Shown: piece after piece, positions 1,632-21,955 of the stretch | Layout: every line of letters starts with the position of its first letter | Position numbering within the stretch: the first letter of the stretch is position 1 | Source: Bacillota bacterium | Lineage (GTDB): Bacteria > Vulcanimicrobiota > JAMDEM01 | NCBI GenBank assembly: GCA_023486985.1 | Contig: JAMDEM010000028.1 | Location: 1-34,199 of the forward strand | Length of the DNA stretch: 34,199 nt | Reading direction: 5' to 3' | Translations under genes and position numbers: made by a program | The notes under the pieces: model-generated | Seen by the model: only the letters and a program-made list of their open reading frames with translations | Database searches by the model: none | Told to the model about the DNA's origin: nothing

Positions 1632-2969
1632 GTGTCGAGTATGATATATAAAAGCGACAAAAACGAAATAATTGATATACTCCAGGACTGGAATCTCTGG
1701 AAAAGAGAACAAAGTTCAGGCATTCCCCGCGAAAAATACCTTGCCCGGCTAAAGAGCTTCATTGACACCAATCAAGTCATTACAATAACCGGCCCAAGAA
1801 GATCGGGGAAATCTTTTATCATGAAGCAAATGGCAAAAGCGCTCATCGAAAAAAGTAAAGTTAAGGCTGAAAATGTTTTGATAGTCAATTTAGAAGACCC
1901 CCGTTTCCCTGCTTTAAGCCTGAAACTTCTCGAGCAAATTTATGAAGCTTATCTTGAATTTTTATCTCCAAAAGGGCAGATTTTTATCTTTCTCGACGAA
2001 GTTCAGGAAATAGAAAGCTGGGAAAAGTGGGTAAGGATGATGCATGAATTAAGAAAAGCAAAAATTATAGTTTCAGGCTCGAATGCAAAACTGTTAAGCA
2101 GGGAGCTTGGCACGCTGCTTACAGGCAGGCATCTTGATTTGACTGTTTTTCCACTATCCTTTAAAGAATTTCTTGAATTTAATGGCGTTATTTTACTAGA
2201 CAGGCTGGATATAATAAACAGAAAAATTGAAATTAAAGGCTTATTGCGCAAGTACCTTGAATTTGGATCATTTCCTGAGGCTGTGCTATCGGAACAAAAA
2301 AAAGAGATTCTGCTTAACTATTTTGAAGACATTGTAAATAAGGATTTGCTAAGAAGGTTCAGAATAAGAAAATATCAGGATTTAAATGCGCTTGTCAAGT
2401 TCTATCTCAGCAATATATCCTCACTTGCCACCTACAGATCTCTTGAAAAATCTCTTAAAATATCTAATGACACTATAGAGAAATTTTCGGGTTATCTTGA
2501 GCAGGTTTATCTGGTGTTTCTGTTAAAAAGGTTTTCTTTTAAAGTGAGGGAGCAGGAAAATAGCCCCAGGAAAGTTTATGCGATTGACACAGGCTTGTGT
2601 AATGCAGTAGGTTTCAGATTTAGCGAAAATTTTGGCAGACTTGCTGAAAACCTTGTTTTTCTGGAATTGAAAAGGAGGCAGGCTTTAAAAATCGAGAAGG
2701 AACTTTATTTCTGGAAGGATGAATACCATAAGGAAGTTGACTTTTTAATAAAAGAGGGTTTGAGGGTTAAGGAGCTTATACAGGTTTGCTGGAACATAAG
2801 AAGCGAGAAAACAAAAAGCAGAGAGATAAGAAGCCTTCTGAAGGCGATGGATGAATTTGAACTTGACGAAGCAGCAATTATTACTGAAGATGACGAGGCA
2901 GAGGAAAAGATAAAGGGAAAAACAATTAGGTTTCTGCCATTGTGGAAATGGCTGCTTGAAGATGAGTGA
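1632..2969 (+). CDS. AAA+ ATPase of the COG1373 type (AAA_14 N-terminal domain plus DUF4143 / restriction-endonuclease-like C-terminal region)
   Basis: Walker A ITITGPRRSGKSF, Walker B IFIFLDEVQ and a C-terminal KEVDFLI acidic motif. The architecture matches the second ATPase at 6344..7723. The true start may be the ATG at 1641 rather than the GTG at 1632. Confidence 0.8.
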   Translation: MSSMIYKSDKNEIIDILQDWNLWKREQSSGIPREKYLARLKSFIDTNQVITITGPRRSGKSFIMKQMAKALIEKSKVKAENVLIVNLEDPRFPALSLKLLEQIYEAYLEFLSPKGQIFIFLDEVQEIESWEKWVRMMHELRKAKIIVSGSNAKLLSRELGTLLTGRHLDLTVFPLSFKEFLEFNGVILLDRLDIINRKIEIKGLLRKYLEFGSFPEAVLSEQKKEILLNYFEDIVNKDLLRRFRIRKYQDLNALVKFYLSNISSLATYRSLEKSLKISNDTIEKFSGYLEQVYLVFLLKRFSFKVREQENSPRKVYAIDTGLCNAVGFRFSENFGRLAENLVFLELKRRQALKIEKELYFWKDEYHKEVDFLIKEGLRVKELIQVCWNIRSEKTKSREIRSLLKAMDEFELDEAAIITEDDEAEEKIKGKTIRFLPLWKWLLEDE

Positions 2970-2992
2970 TGTAGGAAAAGCTTGTCATTTTT

Positions 2993-3057
2993 GTCGTTGC
3001 GAGCTTCCCATTTCCCCTCTCCCACTGGGAAAGGGTGAGGGGAAAAGCCTTGCAATC
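2993..3057. repeat. Copy B of the GTCRTTGCGAG...GGTGAGGG...TTGCAA repeat family, between convergent genes (possible bidirectional terminator)
   Basis: GTCGTTGCGAGCTTCCCA is at 2993-3010 and the palindrome tcccactggga is around 3020-3030. GGGAAAGGGTGAGGGG is at 3028-3042 and TTGCAA at 3050-3055. The element fills the gap between the stop codons at 2969 and 3071. Confidence 0.7.
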
Positions 3058-3070
3058 CCGGTTTGACGCA

Positions 3071-4780
3071 CTATACCAAATATTGTCCGTCAAATATGAT
3101 AGGAGAATTCTGAGCTTTTTCCATACCGCCGGAAGCCTTCGTTTTAATAACAACATCCGCCGGGTCTTCCGTTATCTTTATTCCTTTTTCAGGATTCACA
3201 GGCGCAGGCTTGCCGTTTATCGTGGCAGATACTATTTCCGAGCCGTCTCCTGAAGACTGAACCTTTAACGAAGATATATTTCCAAAAGGAACAGGCGTAT
3301 TCATGTTTGCATAATTTAGTTGAGGATTCAAATTAGGTTTTACATATGTGCCGTCTCCGGGATAGTAATTAAGCCCGATAACTTTTTTCATCATCATTTC
3401 ACTGTAAAGGGAATTTGCCCATGAGAACCAGCCCCTGCTGTATTCGCCGGGGTTATCGGGATTTACGCCCTCATGCATGTAGTGAGTGCCTGCATCAAGA
3501 TTGTTAAGATACGTCTCCATCTTCTGTATTTCACCGGGATCATTTGAGGTAAGCGCCTGCATTGTTATTGCCAGGGGCCATACTCTTTTGCCGGGCGTAT
3601 GGGGGCTTCCCACTCCGGCTCCTTGAGTTCCTGAATAATAATATGGATTATCTTTGCTTAACACAAAATTGCGGGTATTTTTGTAAGTCGGGTCATTCGG
3701 CGAACAGAATTCCAGATAAGGAGCTGAAAGCAAGCTGGGCACATTTGCATCATCCATCAAATTTGCATTGCCGTTATCATCAACCTCGTATGCCCACATT
3801 TTGCCGTAAACAGGATGATTGTAGGTTACATATTTTTCAATGCCGGCTTTAATATTATTGCCGATGTCTTCGCATTCCTTTGCCCTCACGGGATCGTTCC
3901 AGATATTTAAATACATATCTTTAAGCTTGGGCATCGTGGAAGCAAGGAACATATTGGTTGGTATTAAATATGGATACTTTGTCTCATCATCACTGGGACG
4001 GTTGTTGCATTTAACCAACCCGGTGGGACCGGTTTTTTGCTTGATTAAATCAATGGCTTTATCAAAAGCTTTTTTAGCATCAAAGTCGCCTGACTGGCGC
4101 GCCCATGAATCATCACCGCTTACTTTGGTGTAAAGTGATGCAAGGCGAATCAGATATGCCACACCGTCCGGCTCGTACTTGCGCTCCCAAGGGGTGTAAT
4201 CGTCTTTCCACGAATTTACAAAAGGTGCATCCGGCTCGGAAGAGTTGAAATTTTTTATATGCCTTAAAATAGTTCCTTTGATTACTCTTTGCAGTTCGGG
4301 ATTATCCTTGCTCATATAAACATAAGGTTGTATCTGGGCGCATGAATCTCTCACCCACATGGCGGGAATATCGCCGGTTATGGTAAAAGTGGTGCCGTCC
4401 GGTTTTAAATTTACAGTTGTCTTCAGGGTGTTGGGAAGGCAATTCTTAAATGTTTCCTTCGCATAGGAGTCGGGAATATCAAAGCCTGCAGCAAAATTAT
4501 CAATCGTCTTCAGTCCATCCTGTGCCGCAGTTATTTTGCCGCCTGCCTGCTTCGCCTCCCCCGTTATTAAAGAGGGTTGGTGGGATTCTTTCTTCAGTCG
4601 GGAAATCATATTCATATCGGCAAGAAGAGCATCTTTTTTCCTGCTGGAGATTTCAACCCTGTCCTTCGAAACTGCCGGAGGATTGAGTTTCACAGAAGCA
4701 GTCTCAGAGGGGGCGATTTTATTCAGCTTCGCCTCGTTCCCCGAAAGGAAAGCTCCTCCCTGACCATCAATTTTTTCCAT
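3071..4780 (-). CDS. Glycoside hydrolase family 125 (metal-independent exo-alpha-1,6-mannosidase family, DUF1237) with a ~130-aa non-catalytic N-terminal leader
   Basis: The family signature ITGDIPAMWVRDSCAQIQPYV is present and the remainder has GH125-like length. An AGGAG Shine-Dalgarno sequence lies 9 nt before the ATG. The N-terminus (MEKIDGQGG...SKDRVEISSRKKDALL...) has no hydrophobic signal peptide. Confidence 0.8.
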   Translation of the reverse strand: MEKIDGQGGAFLSGNEAKLNKIAPSETASVKLNPPAVSKDRVEISSRKKDALLADMNMISRLKKESHQPSLITGEAKQAGGKITAAQDGLKTIDNFAAGFDIPDSYAKETFKNCLPNTLKTTVNLKPDGTTFTITGDIPAMWVRDSCAQIQPYVYMSKDNPELQRVIKGTILRHIKNFNSSEPDAPFVNSWKDDYTPWERKYEPDGVAYLIRLASLYTKVSGDDSWARQSGDFDAKKAFDKAIDLIKQKTGPTGLVKCNNRPSDDETKYPYLIPTNMFLASTMPKLKDMYLNIWNDPVRAKECEDIGNNIKAGIEKYVTYNHPVYGKMWAYEVDDNGNANLMDDANVPSLLSAPYLEFCSPNDPTYKNTRNFVLSKDNPYYYSGTQGAGVGSPHTPGKRVWPLAITMQALTSNDPGEIQKMETYLNNLDAGTHYMHEGVNPDNPGEYSRGWFSWANSLYSEMMMKKVIGLNYYPGDGTYVKPNLNPQLNYANMNTPVPFGNISSLKVQSSGDGSEIVSATINGKPAPVNPEKGIKITEDPADVVIKTKASGGMEKAQNSPIIFDGQYLV

Positions 4781-4799
4781 TACTTGCTACTCCTAATTT

Positions 4800-4838
4800 G
4801 TCATTGCGAGGTCACCGAAGGTGACCGTGGCACTCTCT
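4800..4838. repeat. Copy C (short form) of the GTCATTGCGAG repeat with a perfect hairpin, in the 60-bp GH130-GH125 spacer
   Basis: GTCATTGCGAG is at 4800-4810. The 7-bp stem ggtcacc (4810-4816) and ggtgacc (4820-4826) flank a gaa loop. A REP-like intra-operon hairpin is the likely role. Confidence 0.65.
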
Positions 4839-4840
4839 AA

Positions 4841-6067
4841 CTACGCGGCTTTTCCAAGCGCATTGAAAGTCTTGACGATACCTGCAGCTATCGGGCTCTG
4901 CATTGCAGGAGCAACCGCAGCAACTGCCAGTCCGATGTAGCGGTCCGCACCGCCAAAATAAATGTCAACCTTGCCGTTTTGAACCGTCATCCCCTCGGCG
5001 AAGACTACATTGTCAATGTATCCGTGCTTTTCCCAGTCCTGGGTGGGGGATAGTATTGGCTTATCGGTTCTTGCGATAATCTTTGTGGGATCATTCTTGT
5101 CGAAGAGCACTGCGCCGACGTTGTAATTCTTATGTTCCCCGCCGTCGCCTCCGTTGCTGTTATATATCATAAGGATTCCGTCCTTTGTATAGAAGGGCGG
5201 GGGTCCGGGCTCCACGAGGTTGCTGTCGAATTTGTCCCCTCTGGTCTTGATGACCGGATTCATAATCGGCGTCCAGTGGAGAAGGTCATCAGAAAAAGCC
5301 ATCCAGATGTTGGTGTCCCCGAAGTACATAACATAACGGTCCTTGAAAAGTCCGCTTTTCACCTTCTCGGGAAGAATTGCGCCGGACTTTGTCCAGCCTC
5401 CTGTTGCCGGGAAATCAGGGAATAACGGTCCGTGTTTTTGCCAGTTACGCAAGTCATTGGAAGTTGCCATGCACAGCCTTGCCTTATCGCCGTCATAGGC
5501 GGTGTAGGTCAGGTAATAGGTATCTTTAACTTTAATAAGGCGGGGGTCCTCTATGCCCTTTTTTTCGTAGTCATATTCAGGAACGATGATGGGTTTATCT
5601 TCTCTTTCAAAGTGAATGCCGTCTTTGCTGGTGGCAAGACCAATCCTGCCGGTGATTTGTCCCTGTGGCTCACTCTTGTCCTCGCCTCTATAGAGCATGT
5701 AAGTGACGCCGTTTTCGCGGATGGTTGCCATGTTATAAATATTTCGGGAATCAAAGCCGGTGTCACTGGGTTTCATAATGGGTTCTGACATCTTCTCGAA
5801 GGGTTTTAGTTCTAAATCTGCGGCTTCCCCCGGTCCTTTGGGGGTAATTTTGGAAACAAGGGAGTTAAGGACTTCCTTGTCATTATCCTGTGAGATTGAA
5901 AAGAGTTTTCTGGGATCGGAAATCAGCTTGAGGTCATCCCTCTTTTTCCCTATGGATACGGCATCCTTTGTGAATGCCGTATCCTTCCCAGAGGCTGATT
6001 CCGCCAGCCTGGAATTGCCGGATTCTTTTGGAGTGTAAATAGGCTGAGAAACATTAATCTTATCCAC
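4841..6067 (-). CDS. Glycoside hydrolase family 130 (beta-mannoside phosphorylase/hydrolase, DUF377) with a ~100-aa N-terminal leader
   Basis: The motifs GIEDPRLIKVKDTYYLTYTAYDG, ATSNDLRNWQKHGP, KSGAILPEK and AFSDDLLHWTP are typical of the GH130 five-bladed propeller. The start is a GTG at 6067 preceded by AAGGGGGAAA. The N-terminus (MDKINVSQPIY...TKDAVSIGKKRDDL) has no signal peptide. Confidence 0.8.
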   Translation of the reverse strand: MDKINVSQPIYTPKESGNSRLAESASGKDTAFTKDAVSIGKKRDDLKLISDPRKLFSISQDNDKEVLNSLVSKITPKGPGEAADLELKPFEKMSEPIMKPSDTGFDSRNIYNMATIRENGVTYMLYRGEDKSEPQGQITGRIGLATSKDGIHFEREDKPIIVPEYDYEKKGIEDPRLIKVKDTYYLTYTAYDGDKARLCMATSNDLRNWQKHGPLFPDFPATGGWTKSGAILPEKVKSGLFKDRYVMYFGDTNIWMAFSDDLLHWTPIMNPVIKTRGDKFDSNLVEPGPPPFYTKDGILMIYNSNGGDGGEHKNYNVGAVLFDKNDPTKIIARTDKPILSPTQDWEKHGYIDNVVFAEGMTVQNGKVDIYFGGADRYIGLAVAAVAPAMQSPIAAGIVKTFNALGKAA

Positions 6068-7789: not shown

Positions 7790-7859
7790 ATTTTGCGATT
7801 GAAAACTCTGCAGCTATGCTGCGGAGTATCGTGCCCGCAAAACAAGCTCTGCTTATTTT
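7790..7859 (+). repeat. Structured 70-nt element, copy 1 (second copy at 21883-21955)
   Basis: About 93 percent identical to 21883-21955 (4 substitutions and 1 indel, aligned by eye). The outer stem pairs ttttgcg (7791-7797) with cgcaaaa (7836-7842). The inner 10-bp stem pairs actctgcagc (7805-7814) with gctgcggagt (7818-7827) and includes one G-U pair. A U-rich tail follows. Two of the substitutions fall in the inner loop. Confidence 0.75.
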
Positions 7860-16599: not shown

Positions 16600-17166
16600 A
16601 TGAAAAAATCACTTGGAGCAAAGACTCTAGCTTATCCTGCGCCCGTGTGGGTGGTTGGGACATACGATAAAGAAGGAAAGCCGAATATGATGACAGCCGC
16701 ATGGGGAGGAGTTTGCTGTTCTTCGCCGCCGTGCATTTCTGTCTCTTTAAGGAAAGCAACATACACCTATGATAATATAGTGCAAAGAAAAGCATTCACT
16801 ATAAATGTGCCTTCCGAAAAATTTGCCAATGAAGTGGACTACATTGGTATAGCATCGGGCAGGGATGTTGACAAGTTTTCAGAAACCGGTCTTACTGCGG
16901 TAAAAAGCGATGCGGTGGATGCGCCCCTGGTAAAAGAATTCCCCCTGGTCATTGAATGCAAACTTCTGCAAACAAATGAAATCGGGCTGCACACTCAATT
17001 TATCGGCGAAATCGTGGATGTGAAAGCTGATGAATCCGTGCTTGACGACGGGGGGCATCCGCAGATGGAAAAGATAAAGCCTTTTGTGTATGATACCGGA
17101 ACAAGATTATATTATGGAATCGGGCAATGTCTTGGAAAAGCTTTTTCCATGGGAAAGAAGAAATAG
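16600..17166 (+). CDS. Flavin reductase-like FMN-binding split-barrel protein (flavoredoxin family)
   Basis: [59 protein letters not shown] matches the Flavin_Reduct (PF01613) pattern. GGGAGG lies before the ATG. Confidence 0.8.
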
Positions 17167-17227
17167 CCTGAAGAGTACAGGGCGCAGCAGCGCATGGAAT
17201 AATACGATAAATAGCGAAAGCAGGAAC

Positions 17228-18292
17228 ATGATAAACCATTCAAGATTTTCAATGATGCATAAGCTGGCGTCATTGCTTGTTATTATGCTTTTACTGCTTG
17301 GCATGGGTTGCGGGAATAACCCTGTCAGCAGCATTGGAATCCCTCCGATAAATGCACTTGCATCAGGTGACGGAATCACCATCACCGGCCAGCCGGGTGC
17401 GCTGCCTCCAGGCGTGGCTCTTACTATTACCGCCCTGACCCAGGCACAGGCGCAGGCAGCCGCAGCACTTGCCGGCAATCAAATATTTGTTGCCGCCGGC
17501 GACTTTGGACCTGACGGCACAACGTTTTATGCTCCGGTAACGATAAACTTCCCATTACCTAATCAGCTGGCACCCGGAACAAGACTGCCCTTTTACATGC
17601 TCCAGAATAATGCCTGGGTTAATACCGGTACCGTAGCCATTGTAGGCAGCGACGGACTTACTGCCAGTGCACAGGTGACCCACTTTACAAAGTACATCCT
17701 CTTCCTTGATGATTCCTGGGTAAAGGTATCTTTCGGCGGAAACACACTCATTTCCAAGAGTGGCGGCATACCTTTAACTGCTTTAAATAACCCTATTGTG
17801 CTTGTTTCGGGGAAAACTACCGATGAAACTGTAATTGCGAAGGTCATGGAAGTCAACAATATGAGCAGGGCTGATGCAGTTTATTTTTTGCGGTCCTATG
17901 ATACTTCAGGGGATAAAGTGGTTCAGGTTCTGAGATTAACGGCAGGGGTTATAGTTACCCGTTACTGGCCAAATGATCCTGCCGGAAAGCTCGGACGCTG
18001 GTTTAATGTTATTGACAGCACCACACTATATTTACCTGATAGAGCCAGGCAGTATTATGCCCTTCCGAATTCCAATACGGCATTGAATGTTACCCAGTAC
18101 CTGCTCAAGCCAGGTGCTACAGTGGTTTACGGTGTCTGTGCGGACATGACATGGAGCCCGACCTTTGGACCTTATGCCACAGGGGGAGGCTACCAGATTT
18201 ATGTTTATAGTGCAACAACATGGGACGGACACGCCGCACATTTAAATCCTGATGTCGTGGAAATACAGACGGAATTAAGGTACACGGAGTGA
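17228..18292 (+). CDS. Exported (probable lipo)protein with a C-terminal TNT-like (NAD+ glycohydrolase toxin, PF14021-like) domain
   Basis: ORF track 17084..18292, trimmed to the ATG at 17228, which gives MINHSRFSMMHKLASLLVIMLLLLGMGCGNN (signal peptide plus Cys). The C-terminus reads TRYWPNDPAGKLGRWFNV...RARQYYALP...VTQYLLKPGATVVYG...TFGPYATGGGYQIYV. It follows the TNT/DUF4237 pattern R-Y-G...G-R-F...R-x-LP...Y-x-V-x-KP...G...FGQPGGG-x-Q. Confidence 0.45.
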   Translation: MINHSRFSMMHKLASLLVIMLLLLGMGCGNNPVSSIGIPPINALASGDGITITGQPGALPPGVALTITALTQAQAQAAAALAGNQIFVAAGDFGPDGTTFYAPVTINFPLPNQLAPGTRLPFYMLQNNAWVNTGTVAIVGSDGLTASAQVTHFTKYILFLDDSWVKVSFGGNTLISKSGGIPLTALNNPIVLVSGKTTDETVIAKVMEVNNMSRADAVYFLRSYDTSGDKVVQVLRLTAGVIVTRYWPNDPAGKLGRWFNVIDSTTLYLPDRARQYYALPNSNTALNVTQYLLKPGATVVYGVCADMTWSPTFGPYATGGGYQIYVYSATTWDGHAAHLNPDVVEIQTELRYTE

Positions 18293-18296
18293 AGCC

Positions 18297-18800
18297 ATGA
18301 ACTTGCCGGACAATGTAAGCCAGACAGAATTATTTAACAGAATCAAGAGTATCTATACAGAGGTCACGCAAAACAATGTTCATATTCCGGAAAATGTGAC
18401 AGGTTATATAAGAGAAATTATCAAATGTTTGACTGGGAACCGGCTGGATTTAGAACAACTCTCCTCATATGCAAACGGGATACTTTACTGGTATTATGAT
18501 CAGGGATTCAGGGAAGTACCGATGCATGTTGCGTTGTCAAGATTTGCACTTGATATAGTCAAGATGTGCGACATAACGAAAACACTCTCGCAGGTTGAAT
18601 CGTTGTTGTTCCGGACTAAAGCTCCGGCTGACCTTCGAGAAATAGCGGGCATCCTCAAAAATCTGCTGGCAATATTCGCTCCGGACGGCAGGATGGATGA
18701 GGAGCGTTATAGCAAACTTGTCCCTCAATTGAGGGATTTATGCGTATCCAATGAAGAGATTCTTAAGAAATCCGTTGACCACGCAATATTTTATATTTAA
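18297..18800 (+). CDS. Hypothetical protein; candidate cognate immunity protein of the TNT-like toxin
   Basis: 167 aa, cytosolic and helical. It starts 4 nt after the toxin stop, and its Shine-Dalgarno sequence (ACGGAG) lies inside the end of the toxin gene, which indicates translational coupling. I recognise no family signature. Confidence 0.35.
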   Translation: MNLPDNVSQTELFNRIKSIYTEVTQNNVHIPENVTGYIREIIKCLTGNRLDLEQLSSYANGILYWYYDQGFREVPMHVALSRFALDIVKMCDITKTLSQVESLLFRTKAPADLREIAGILKNLLAIFAPDGRMDEERYSKLVPQLRDLCVSNEEILKKSVDHAIFYI

Positions 18801-18838: not shown

Positions 18839-19372
18839 CTATCTGCCTGCAAGTTTTGCGGCGTAGTTGTACGCCTGTAAGCACCACTCTTTTTCTGCCT
18901 CAAGCCATCCTCCGAGTATCCATTCTTCTCCTATTAGCGACAGGCGCAAAATTATTTTGCTTGAGGAGAAAGAGTGAATCCTTTTGGCACCGGCTCTTAA
19001 AGCCTCTTCAAGCACTTTATCCGGCAGGCGGAGCGTGTAAACATGTGTGCCTTCGGCCCATCCGAAAATGATGCCGGAGACCGGATGGACAAGAACGGCG
19101 GTTCCATAAATTACCCAACGGCATGATTCGGGCAGATTCACAGTTATTTCGTCCCACAGGCGTTCTACAACATCAGGGTGCGTTCCGAGGCTGATATAGG
19201 GTTTTTCTACGCTTTTGGGCGATTGGCTTGCTTTAATTTTTACCAGGTCGTTTTCTCGCAGGCTCAGGCATCTAAGGATAAAAGTAGTGTCCTGAGACAG
19301 GTAGAAAAAGTAAGGATTCTTGAGGTATTCAAGCACTTTTGTGTTAACCGGATGTGAAAAATCAACATTCAT
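18839..19372 (-). CDS. Hypothetical protein
   Basis: A 177-aa ORF convergent with 18297..18800, with no recognisable motifs. Coding status is inferred only from its length and the absence of a competing ORF. Confidence 0.4.
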   Translation of the reverse strand: MNVDFSHPVNTKVLEYLKNPYFFYLSQDTTFILRCLSLRENDLVKIKASQSPKSVEKPYISLGTHPDVVERLWDEITVNLPESCRWVIYGTAVLVHPVSGIIFGWAEGTHVYTLRLPDKVLEEALRAGAKRIHSFSSSKIILRLSLIGEEWILGGWLEAEKEWCLQAYNYAAKLAGR

Positions 19373-19559: not shown

Positions 19560-20240
19560 ATGACAAAGATAAAGTTGATAAAAGGAACCATGGCTGTTCT
19601 GATGATTGTTTTTCTCGGTATCGGGTTTGCCTTAGCCCAGGGCAATTATCCGGCAAAGATGAAGGAGGGCCAGACATATAAATCATTTTTTGTCGACCTT
19701 AACAAAGACGGGCATAAGGAGAAAATCGCTGTTAAGGTCTATGGAGTTTCCGGTTATGAGTGGTTCGCCCAGATTGTGGTTTTTGATTCATCCGGAAAAG
19801 TTATCTGGAAAGGCCCGGCAGACAAGAACAGGGCTAACCCGCTTGTTTTCGGCAATTTTGACTATGGTTCCGCCCTTCCTGAGGTTGTCCGGGATATGGA
19901 CGACGATGGCAGTGTTGAGATGATTGCTACAACACCTGTCTCGGATGTTAGGCCCCAGCCGTTTCGTCTTTTCCGCTGGAACGGAAAGAAGTTTGTTTAT
20001 GTTTTTATTAAGACACTGATGGAAAAACCGGCCGGTTCAGGAGTTTTTGTCTGGTCAAAGCCGGGACCGCCTGAAGGCTGCTGGATAACGGAATTAAGAG
20101 AAATTAAAGAATATAAAAATTTTATTGCCGAAGTGTTTGAGTATAAAAAAGAAAAGACGAGGGGCGGCAGTGCCGAGGTAGCCTCTTCAGCGGCTGGATT
20201 TAAAGTAGTGAAATGGATTAAGCCTCTGAAATCATTTTGA
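19560..20240 (+). CDS. Secreted hypothetical protein with FG-GAP/VCBS-like Asp-rich loops
   Basis: The signal peptide is MTKIKLIKGTMAVLMIVFLGIGFALAQG. Calcium-loop-like DLNKDGHKEKI and RDMDDDGSVEMI segments are present. AGGAGG lies upstream of the ATG. Confidence 0.55.
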   Translation: MTKIKLIKGTMAVLMIVFLGIGFALAQGNYPAKMKEGQTYKSFFVDLNKDGHKEKIAVKVYGVSGYEWFAQIVVFDSSGKVIWKGPADKNRANPLVFGNFDYGSALPEVVRDMDDDGSVEMIATTPVSDVRPQPFRLFRWNGKKFVYVFIKTLMEKPAGSGVFVWSKPGPPEGCWITELREIKEYKNFIAEVFEYKKEKTRGGSAEVASSAAGFKVVKWIKPLKSF

Positions 20241-21882: not shown

Positions 21883-21955
21883 ATTTTGCGATTGAAAACT
21901 CTGCAGCCTTGCTGCGGAGTGTCGTGCCGCAAAACAAGCTTTGCTTATTTTTTTT
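21883..21955 (+). repeat. Structured 70-nt element, copy 2 (first copy at 7790-7859), ending in a T-run; possible intrinsic terminator between convergent genes
   Basis: attttgcgattgaaaactctgcagccttgctgcggagtgtcgtgccgcaaaacaagctttgcttatttttttt. It has the same two nested stems as copy 1. Its 3' T-run overlaps the last codons and stop (21945-21947) of the TolC-like gene on the other strand. Confidence 0.75.

Follow-up and report, generated by a model that had tools for sequence, protein, structure and literature searches.

Two adjacent open reading frames, ORF1 and ORF2, on a 34,199-nucleotide contig (JAMDEM010000028.1 of assembly GCA_023486985.1; here, the window) of an uncultured, soil-type bacterium deposited as Bacillota and placed by GTDB in the Vulcanimicrobiota, probably form a two-gene module of the polymorphic-toxin type, in which an exported lipoprotein with an NAD(P)+ glycohydrolase (NADase)-type toxin is paired with a cytosolic immunity protein. 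This reading draws on the predicted fold and conserved residues of the C-terminal domain of ORF1, on the recurrence of ORF2 relatives directly behind that domain, and on the range of otherwise different proteins that carry it.

Results

A divergent relative of TNT at the C-terminus of ORF1

An AlphaFold2 (AF2) model of ORF1 residues 225–354, built from an alignment of 49 C-terminal segments (A2), reached a pLDDT of 94.1 and a pTM of 0.86, and a Foldseek search of the PDB with this model returned nine matches at probability 1.00, the tenth falling to 0.05. The nine include Tse6 (4zv0, 4zv4), Serratia marcescens Rhs1-CT (6xtd), Tne2 (6b12), the Aspergillus fumigatus NADase (6ygf, 6yge, 8pmr) and a Fusarium NADase (8r15); for every one of the nine, which belong to the 'TNT-like' group, NAD(P)+ glycohydrolase activity has been shown by experiment (PMC10539506). 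The toxin domain as modelled thus adopts the palm fold seen in the NADases TNT, Tse6 and Tne2; the 24 residues that follow it, a C-terminal extension, are predicted with high confidence to form three further strands.

Sequence profiles connect the domain to TNT by way of an intermediate. Eighteen of the 49 family members match the Pfam TNT family, PF14021, below its gathering score of 27 bits, and no competing family appears in more than three; against the PDB, the best matches of the A2 profile are Tse6 and Rhs1-CT, with the alignment running through the motif GGGxQ. A profile search also recovered a relative, P0175 (E 6.7e-12), that scores 32.0 bits against PF14021, above the cut-off, and that aligns with the A2 family profile at an hhalign probability of 99.0% (E 3.3e-18, 98 columns). 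The profile–profile link to TNT was made through P0175 since no independent TNT alignment could be built. Relative to P0175, the ORF1 subfamily has a conserved seven-residue insertion (FGPYAT plus one residue) before GGGxQ, which is probably why the Pfam TNT model misses it. On these sequence grounds we regard the ORF1 domain as a member of the TNT superfamily that lies outside PF14021 as now delimited; canonical PF14021 domains were found neither in 201 genomes of the ORF1 phylum nor in 14 control genomes. The first-pass annotation of the window had proposed a TNT-like NADase C-terminus, and the proposal stands as far as the fold and the transitive profile link are concerned and falls short of a direct PF14021 match; the stretch that it quoted as ~115 residues is in fact 82 residues long.

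Among the positions conserved within the domain are some that matter in its proposed relatives. Q323, L279, P280, A273 and A317 are invariant in all 49 A2 sequences, N283 is kept in 48, W258 in 45 (with an aromatic residue in 49/49), R245 in 44 and R274 in 43, and G319–G321 are invariant or nearly so. Q323 aligns with the GG(A/T)QQ/GGGTQ of Tse6 and Serratia Rhs1-CT and with the GGGYQ of P0175. Three residues recur in TNT-type NADases, an Arg, an aromatic one and a Gln that is strictly conserved (R757/Y765/Q822 in TNT, R129/F137/Q194 in AfNADase), and mutation of this Gln, equivalent to TNT Q822 and Rhs1-CT Q1452, abolishes Rhs1-CT toxicity (PMC10539506). R245, W258 and Q323 follow the same Arg/aromatic/Gln order, R245 and W258 on the expected strands, an assignment made from alignments, not from three-dimensional superposition. 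The motif string singled out in the first-pass annotation (RYW...GRWF...ALP...KPG...FGPYATGGGYQ) is present, at residues 245–323, and its positions are conserved beyond chance in the 49-sequence alignment.

This conservation bears on whether the domain is an enzyme at all. That ORF1 alone finds no Pfam TNT match, and that an insertion of seven residues precedes GGGxQ relative to the Pfam-positive P0175, might suggest a catalytically dead remnant of an NADase fold followed by an unrelated gene. We find this scarcely credible, given that the Gln is invariant and the Arg and aromatic residue near-invariant across 49 diverse sequences, that the insertion itself (FG-x-YA-T) is highly conserved, and that the downstream partner is conserved as well.

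It bears equally on what kind of enzyme the domain might be. The TNT palm fold is a branch of the ADP-ribosyltransferase (ART)-like fold, and the glycohydrolase activity of ORF1 is itself a prediction, so the domain could be pictured as a transferase acting on protein, RNA or DNA, with the rest of the module working alike. Transferases of the R-S-E or H-Y-E kind have a Glu, not a Gln, at the catalytic position. In the ORF1 family the invariant residue at this position is the Gln of GGGxQ, as in TNT-type NADases, and each of the nine confident structural matches is a proven glycohydrolase (PMC10539506). ART toxins carried on Rhs proteins, their immunity genes next to them, have been described (PMC13617354 is one example), and still a transferase seems to us distinctly improbable here.

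ORF2 and the pairing of the two genes

Members of the ORF2 family lie directly 3' of the toxin domain in nine loci that differ in their N-terminal modules, a conserved synteny that speaks for the toxin–immunity pair suggested in the first-pass annotation. The homologue in L001 is 64% identical and, like one from another genome of the same phylum (L002/L016, 46%), has 167 residues; that of L003 has 97 and overlaps the toxin end, those of L006 and L007, from Armatimonadota, have 95–104, L004 and L008 give weaker matches (E 6e-6 and 7e-3), and a distant homologue stands behind an Rhs C-terminal tip cassette (L009). The conserved core comprises residues 1–95, with the motif W-[YH]-x-D-Q-G-F...VP-x-H; residues 96–167 extend it in the closest relatives alone. 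A signal peptide or other export signal is lacking in ORF2, in keeping with the cytosolic 167-residue product described earlier.

Searches of ORF1 and ORF2 against Pfam, NCBIfam and PADLOC gave no match even at permissive thresholds, and ORF2 against the PDB returned only designed helical-repeat or coiled-coil noise, with no match to Tsi6, Tni2, IFT or RhsI1. The immunity proteins of different NADase groups are mutually unrelated (PMC10539506).

In each of the loci examined, a small same-strand ORF follows the toxin domain directly, and in L010, L011, L012/13 and L014 this ORF is not detectably related to ORF2. Unrelated small ORFs at the same position are the usual picture of toxin–immunity diversification, and ORF2, judged by its sequence and position, is most likely the immunity protein of the toxin domain. 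Two of the unrelated ORFs (L010 4228–4539, from a Bacteroidota metagenome-assembled genome (MAG), and L012 4443–4796, from a sediment metagenome) have a C-terminal YYFAH[YH]Y motif in common and may represent a second immunity family for this domain.

Domain architecture of ORF1

ORF1 is a predicted bacterial lipoprotein: its N-terminus, MINHSRFSMMHKLASLLVIMLLLLGMG-C28, satisfies the PROSITE PS51257-type lipobox rule, and the Cys-Gly at the lipobox is shared by P0004, P0005, P0006 and the majority of full-length relatives. Among 5.8 billion proteins, a word-indexed search brought up no more than four close homologues (P0004–P0007, 37–70% identity); a HMMER scan of 1.84 billion cluster representatives gave 428 matches, whose coordinates resolve three separable modules. 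The N-terminal module (residues 40–165) occurs in more than 100 otherwise different proteins, the middle module (161–240) is limited to ~25 close relatives, and the C-terminal module (232–330) is found at the extreme C-terminus of proteins 80 to 1059 residues long.

The N-terminal module, we find, is a ZU5 domain. Foldseek matched it to the ankyrin ZU5 domain (3f59) at probability 1.00 with a first full-length AF2 model, which was built from five sequences, was poor in its C-terminal half (pLDDT 64) and was used only for the ZU5 domain and as a first pointer to Tse6. A profile of 22 N-terminal domain sequences (A5) matched the ZU5 domains of ankyrin, ZO-1 and UNC5B in the PDB (E 3e-9 to 4e-3), and 20 of the 22 members match PF00791, the Pfam ZU5 family (best E 7.9e-8); the segment of ORF1 itself remains below threshold, at 13.4 bits for a cut-off of 21. 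WD40 matches of the same profile were disregarded, as they are due to a short FxPDG motif repeated in WD40 proteins. What the first-pass annotation had described as a β-rich middle region is therefore, in the model, a ZU5 domain with an HF/T motif, a domain it had missed; the HFTKY it noted is present, at residues 152–156, as is the signal-peptide/Cys N-terminus, whose cysteine is Cys28.

Of 109 homologous ZU5 domains, 81 have HF[S/T/C] at the position aligned with H152-F153-T154. PIDD and Nup98 cleave themselves at HF/S, the attack on the peptide bond before it coming from a Ser, Thr or Cys, and the resulting fragments as a rule remain together (PMC3210808). ZU5 has been described as a 'releasing' autopeptidase at the N-terminus of polymorphic toxins exported by Sec, and also in other bacterial surface proteins (Zhang et al. 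2012, PMC3482391). Other family members with an N-terminal ZU5 domain are lipoproteins or secreted proteins with Ig-like and β-propeller domains. The ORF1 genome has another ZU5 domain with HFT, located where a contig ends (L020, contig C137:27301-29209); about 35 of its residues are also encoded, identically and on the opposite strand, at the end of a 189-residue secreted protein, in what looks like either an inverted duplication or a contig-end assembly artefact.

Among relatives, the middle domain and the toxin domain are invariably retained as one unit. The middle domain has a conserved helix pair (D-P-A-V-I-x-x-V-M...A-x-x-L-L-R-S-Y-D-T-x-G) and gave nothing significant in profile searches of the PDB or against Pfam, with faint UBA-like matches in 3 of 20 members. 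A single-sequence PDB search had suggested a CBM40/sialidase lectin module (6er2; residues 164–290, E 0.004), which was rejected as a chance match because it vanished with family profiles and is at odds with the confident fold result.

Carriers and distribution of the toxin domain

The toxin domain caps proteins with unrelated N-termini: it ends carriers of 1059, 774, 659, 643, 528 and 820 residues, and it is found in Ig-like-domain proteins, an M16-peptidase fusion, an Rhs-tip cassette (L009) and short stand-alone forms. Of the features looked for in polymorphic toxins (Zhang et al. 2012), a C-terminal toxin domain shared between proteins that differ in their N-terminal trafficking regions and a variable partner gene downstream are both found in this family; orphan cassettes that could recombine with the toxin gene are absent from the source genome as far as it is assembled, and arrays of them occur in the L009 locus of a relative. 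In L009, the NADase-like domain and a distant ORF2 homologue make up one cassette. The locus as a whole (2413–5521, in a Candidatus Thermoflexus tengchongensis MAG) strings together orphan Rhs C-terminal tip cassettes; every cassette has an Rhs end of the PxxxxDPxGH type, a toxin tip unlike the others and a small ORF downstream. The subfamily is spread over uncultured Eremiobacterota, Armatimonadota, Chloroflexota, Thermoleophilia and Bacteroidota, and the divergent toxin domain is present in 3 of the 201 genomes of the phylum, as expected of an accessory gene.

The locus

ORF1 runs from an ATG at 17228 to a TGA at 18290–18292, and ORF2 from an ATG at 18297 to a TAA at 18798–18800 (Table 1). 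Four nucleotides (AGCC) separate the ORF1 stop from the ORF2 start, and a GGAG at the end of ORF1, 8 nucleotides from the ORF2 ATG, could serve as Shine–Dalgarno sequence, which together make translational coupling plausible; on the placing of the two ORFs, the four-nucleotide gap, the Shine–Dalgarno sequence inside ORF1 and the coupling, our reading agrees with the first-pass annotation. A flavin reductase gene (16600–17166) ends upstream of ORF1 and the next gene 3' of ORF2 (18839–19372) lies on the opposite strand, so that the unit consists of just ORF1 and ORF2. The public gene call (P0003, 392 residues, beginning MESGNV) starts 38 codons upstream (17084–17227), overlapping the flavin reductase gene, and is probably mis-called; the start at 17228 is supported by the 70%-identical homologue P0004, which begins at the equivalent position with a conserved N-terminus.

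Table 1. Features of the ORF1–ORF2 locus, in window coordinates.
Feature	Position	Strand	Basis or remark
ORF1 (P0001), predicted lipoprotein toxin precursor	17228..18292 (incl. stop)	+	354 residues
Signal peptide and lipobox (LLGMG-C28)	17228..17311	+	PROSITE PS51257-type rule
ZU5 domain (residues 40-160)	17345..17707	+	Foldseek and profile A5
H152-F153-T154, predicted autoproteolytic site (between F153 and T154)	17681..17689	+	HF[S/T/C] at aligned position
Middle domain (residues 161-231)	17708..17920	+	accompanies toxin domain in ~25 relatives
Divergent TNT-superfamily NAD(P)+ glycohydrolase-like toxin domain (residues 232-330)	17921..18217	+	AF2 model, Foldseek, hhalign
GGGYQ motif with Gln323, predicted catalytic or ribose-positioning	18182..18196	+	Q323 in 49/49
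C-terminal β-strand extension (residues 331-354)	18218..18289	+	only in the ZU5/middle/TNT-like subfamily (A2)
GGAG, Shine–Dalgarno sequence for ORF2	18285..18288	+	within last codons of ORF1 (ACG GAG TGA), read from sequence
ORF2 (P0002), predicted immunity protein, cytosolic	18297..18800	+	167 residues

The neighbours at 18839–19372 (- strand, 177 residues) and 19560–20240 (+ strand, 226 residues) are without Pfam match, and the N-terminus of the latter resembles a signal peptide. An element of ~70 nucleotides, with nested inverted repeats and a T-run, occurs in two direct copies (7790–7859 and 21883–21955, ~93% identical in alignment) that flank a 14-kb stretch with the toxin pair and other accessory genes; it may be a terminator, a REP-like element or the boundary of an island.

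Discussion

A probable module of exported toxin and cytosolic immunity protein

We picture the module as follows. The ORF1 precursor would be exported by Sec and lipidated at Cys28, and the ZU5 domain behind the anchor would most likely cut its own chain between F153 and T154, leaving a C-terminal fragment of ~200 residues (T154–E354, the middle and toxin domains) that only non-covalent contacts would keep in place and that could come off the cell surface. The toxin domain most probably splits NAD+ and NADP+ by hydrolysis, yielding nicotinamide and ADP-ribose (or its 2'-phosphate); a cell would be arrested or killed once the toxin is in its cytoplasm, the target being probably competing bacteria. 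ORF2, predicted to be cytosolic and plausibly coupled to ORF1 in translation, most likely attaches to the toxin domain and occludes the cleft of its active site, and would guard the producer both against toxin that folds before export and against toxin from sister cells.

Several observations weigh against this picture. The Foldseek matches have moderate E-values (7e-4 to 3e-2) and moderate TM-scores (0.43–0.60), the latter being usual among these very divergent enzymes, and TNT's own structure is absent among the matches listed; hmmscan of ORF1 against Pfam, run down to E≤10, matches neither PF14021 nor anything else. Many full-length ORF1 relatives no longer have HF[S/T]: P0006 has HFP and P0007 KPG, P0009–P0014, P0017 and P0018 are also without it, and RPG and QCG are among the other replacements in the family. 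In L006, L007, P0016, P0020 and P0022 the lipobox is joined directly to the middle domain with no ZU5 between them; the family can therefore do without autocleavage. No partner can be recognised downstream in the full-length relatives that are most distant, those of the P0007 locus and of L005, which are probably from Actinomycetota. The source genome, itself only 63% complete, has one copy of the toxin domain and its partner and no orphan cassettes. Finally, no dedicated delivery machinery is evident by which a lipoprotein toxin would reach the cytoplasm of a target.

For this last difficulty an apparatus-free route can be imagined, which we put forward as rather unlikely. The fragment shed by ZU5 would enter diderm neighbours in the manner of a bacteriocin, with the middle domain (residues 161–231) as a receptor-binding or translocation module and with the ORF2 family, through its W-[YH]-x-D-Q-G-F core, plugging the NADase cleft. 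If correct, it would add a Sec/Lol-dependent branch, in the little-studied Eremiobacterota and neighbours, to the Tne/TNT NADase toxins, which have so far centred on type VI secretion (T6SS) and ESX.

The main alternative dispenses with the weapon. ORF1 would be an extracytoplasmic housekeeping or scavenging NADase that breaks down NAD(P)+ in the periplasm or on the cell surface, for the salvage of nicotinamide or ADP-ribose or the removal of a signal, and ORF2 a safety inhibitor of any enzyme folded ahead of export, like IFS for the streptococcal SPN. Export by a Sec/lipoprotein signal with no recognisable injection system would suit such an enzyme, as would the ordinary surface proteins with Ig-like or β-propeller domains found among the other N-terminal ZU5 lipoproteins, and the structural relatives include fungal cell-surface NADases that are not known as delivered toxins (PMC7955114). 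Yet the same domain caps an Rhs-tip cassette within the toxin–immunity array of L009 and stands behind many unrelated N-termini; its partner genes diversify with it; its distribution, in 3 of the 201 phylum genomes, is very patchy; and the locus lies in a stretch rich in accessory and defence-type genes. A housekeeping role is for these reasons rather improbable in our view.

A tight operon of two genes, plausibly coupled in translation, could also be that of a classical intracellular toxin–antitoxin pair, serving addiction or abortive infection inside the producer. Effectors that deplete NAD+ are used in several defence systems. In type II systems the toxin is cytoplasmic and the labile antitoxin usually encoded upstream; here, the toxin is exported and encoded first, an order of toxin then inhibitor that is that of polymorphic toxins, the signal peptide and lipobox are conserved across relatives, ORF1 includes the ZU5 module of surface proteins, and neither protein matches a PADLOC model. 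We consider an intracellular pair very improbable, and the self-addiction role that had been floated for the locus is unlikely because its toxin bears an export signal.

If the polymorphic-toxin reading is right, NADase toxins would also be deployed through the general lipoprotein pathway. The NAD(P)+-destroying toxins of the TNT/Tse6/Tne kind are among the most potent interbacterial and anti-host effectors, and those characterised ride on T6SS or ESX; the ORF1 locus and its ~60 relatives define a subfamily missed by Pfam, with a lipoprotein–ZU5 carrier and a candidate immunity family. The pair (354 and 167 residues) would also offer a small, tractable model for bacterial ZU5 autoprocessing, and would help to annotate 'hypothetical' genes in candidate phyla.

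Comparison with known systems

The TNT-type NADase toxins comprise CpnT TNT/IFT of M. tuberculosis (PF14021), Tse6–Tsi6 (Tne1), Tne2–Tni2 and Serratia Rhs1-CT/RhsI1 (Tne3, Tne4), together with the fungal surface NADases. With these ORF1 has in common the palm fold (Foldseek probability 1.00 to five enzymes), the Gln of GGGxQ and, putatively, the upstream Arg and aromatic residue (PMC10539506), as well as the position of the domain at the C-terminal tip of its carrier and a small gene directly downstream for a predicted inhibitor that is cytosolic, as IFT is. It differs in falling below the PF14021 threshold, in the seven-residue insertion and in the 24-residue C-terminal β extension; its carrier is a lipoprotein with a ZU5 domain, neither a T6SS PAAR or Rhs protein nor an ESX-dependent outer-membrane channel, and ORF2 matches no solved immunity protein.

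The Sec-exported ZU5 polymorphic toxins (PMC3482391) offer a second likeness, with their signal peptide, ZU5 domain with HF[S/T], C-terminal toxin common to different carriers, and downstream immunity gene. Those described are mostly very large proteins of the Rhs or SpvB type with nuclease or peptidase toxins, whereas ORF1 is compact (354 residues) and repeat-free, with ZU5 ~70 residues from an NADase-type domain, and many of its orthologues have lost HF[S/T]. PIDD, Nup98, NLRP1 and CARD8 likewise have a ZU5 fold in which H-F-(S/T) marks the domain's C-terminal edge and a long β-strand comes next; ORF1 differs from them in its bacterial surface-protein context, in a putative nucleophile that is Thr, not Ser, and in that its cleavage is a prediction only.

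By analogy of design, the best functional counterparts of ORF1/ORF2 would be CpnT–IFT and Myxococcus SitA/SitI. In CpnT–IFT, a cytosolic antitoxin guards against an exported NADase. In SitA/SitI as in ORF1/ORF2, a lipobox, an intermediate domain and a polymorphic C-terminal toxin make up a modular lipoprotein, and a gene for cytoplasmic immunity, predicted in the case of ORF2, lies downstream, a likeness in how the module might work and not one of membership: the SitA toxins are nucleases that depend on TraA/B-mediated membrane fusion and outer-membrane exchange, and have no ZU5 domain (PMC5562445, PMC8546572). Polymorphic toxins that end in a TNT-like NADase and have their immunity gene beside them are already known; new are a domain subfamily invisible to Pfam, a compact lipoprotein–ZU5 carrier in place of T6SS, Rhs or ESX, and an undescribed family of candidate immunity proteins.

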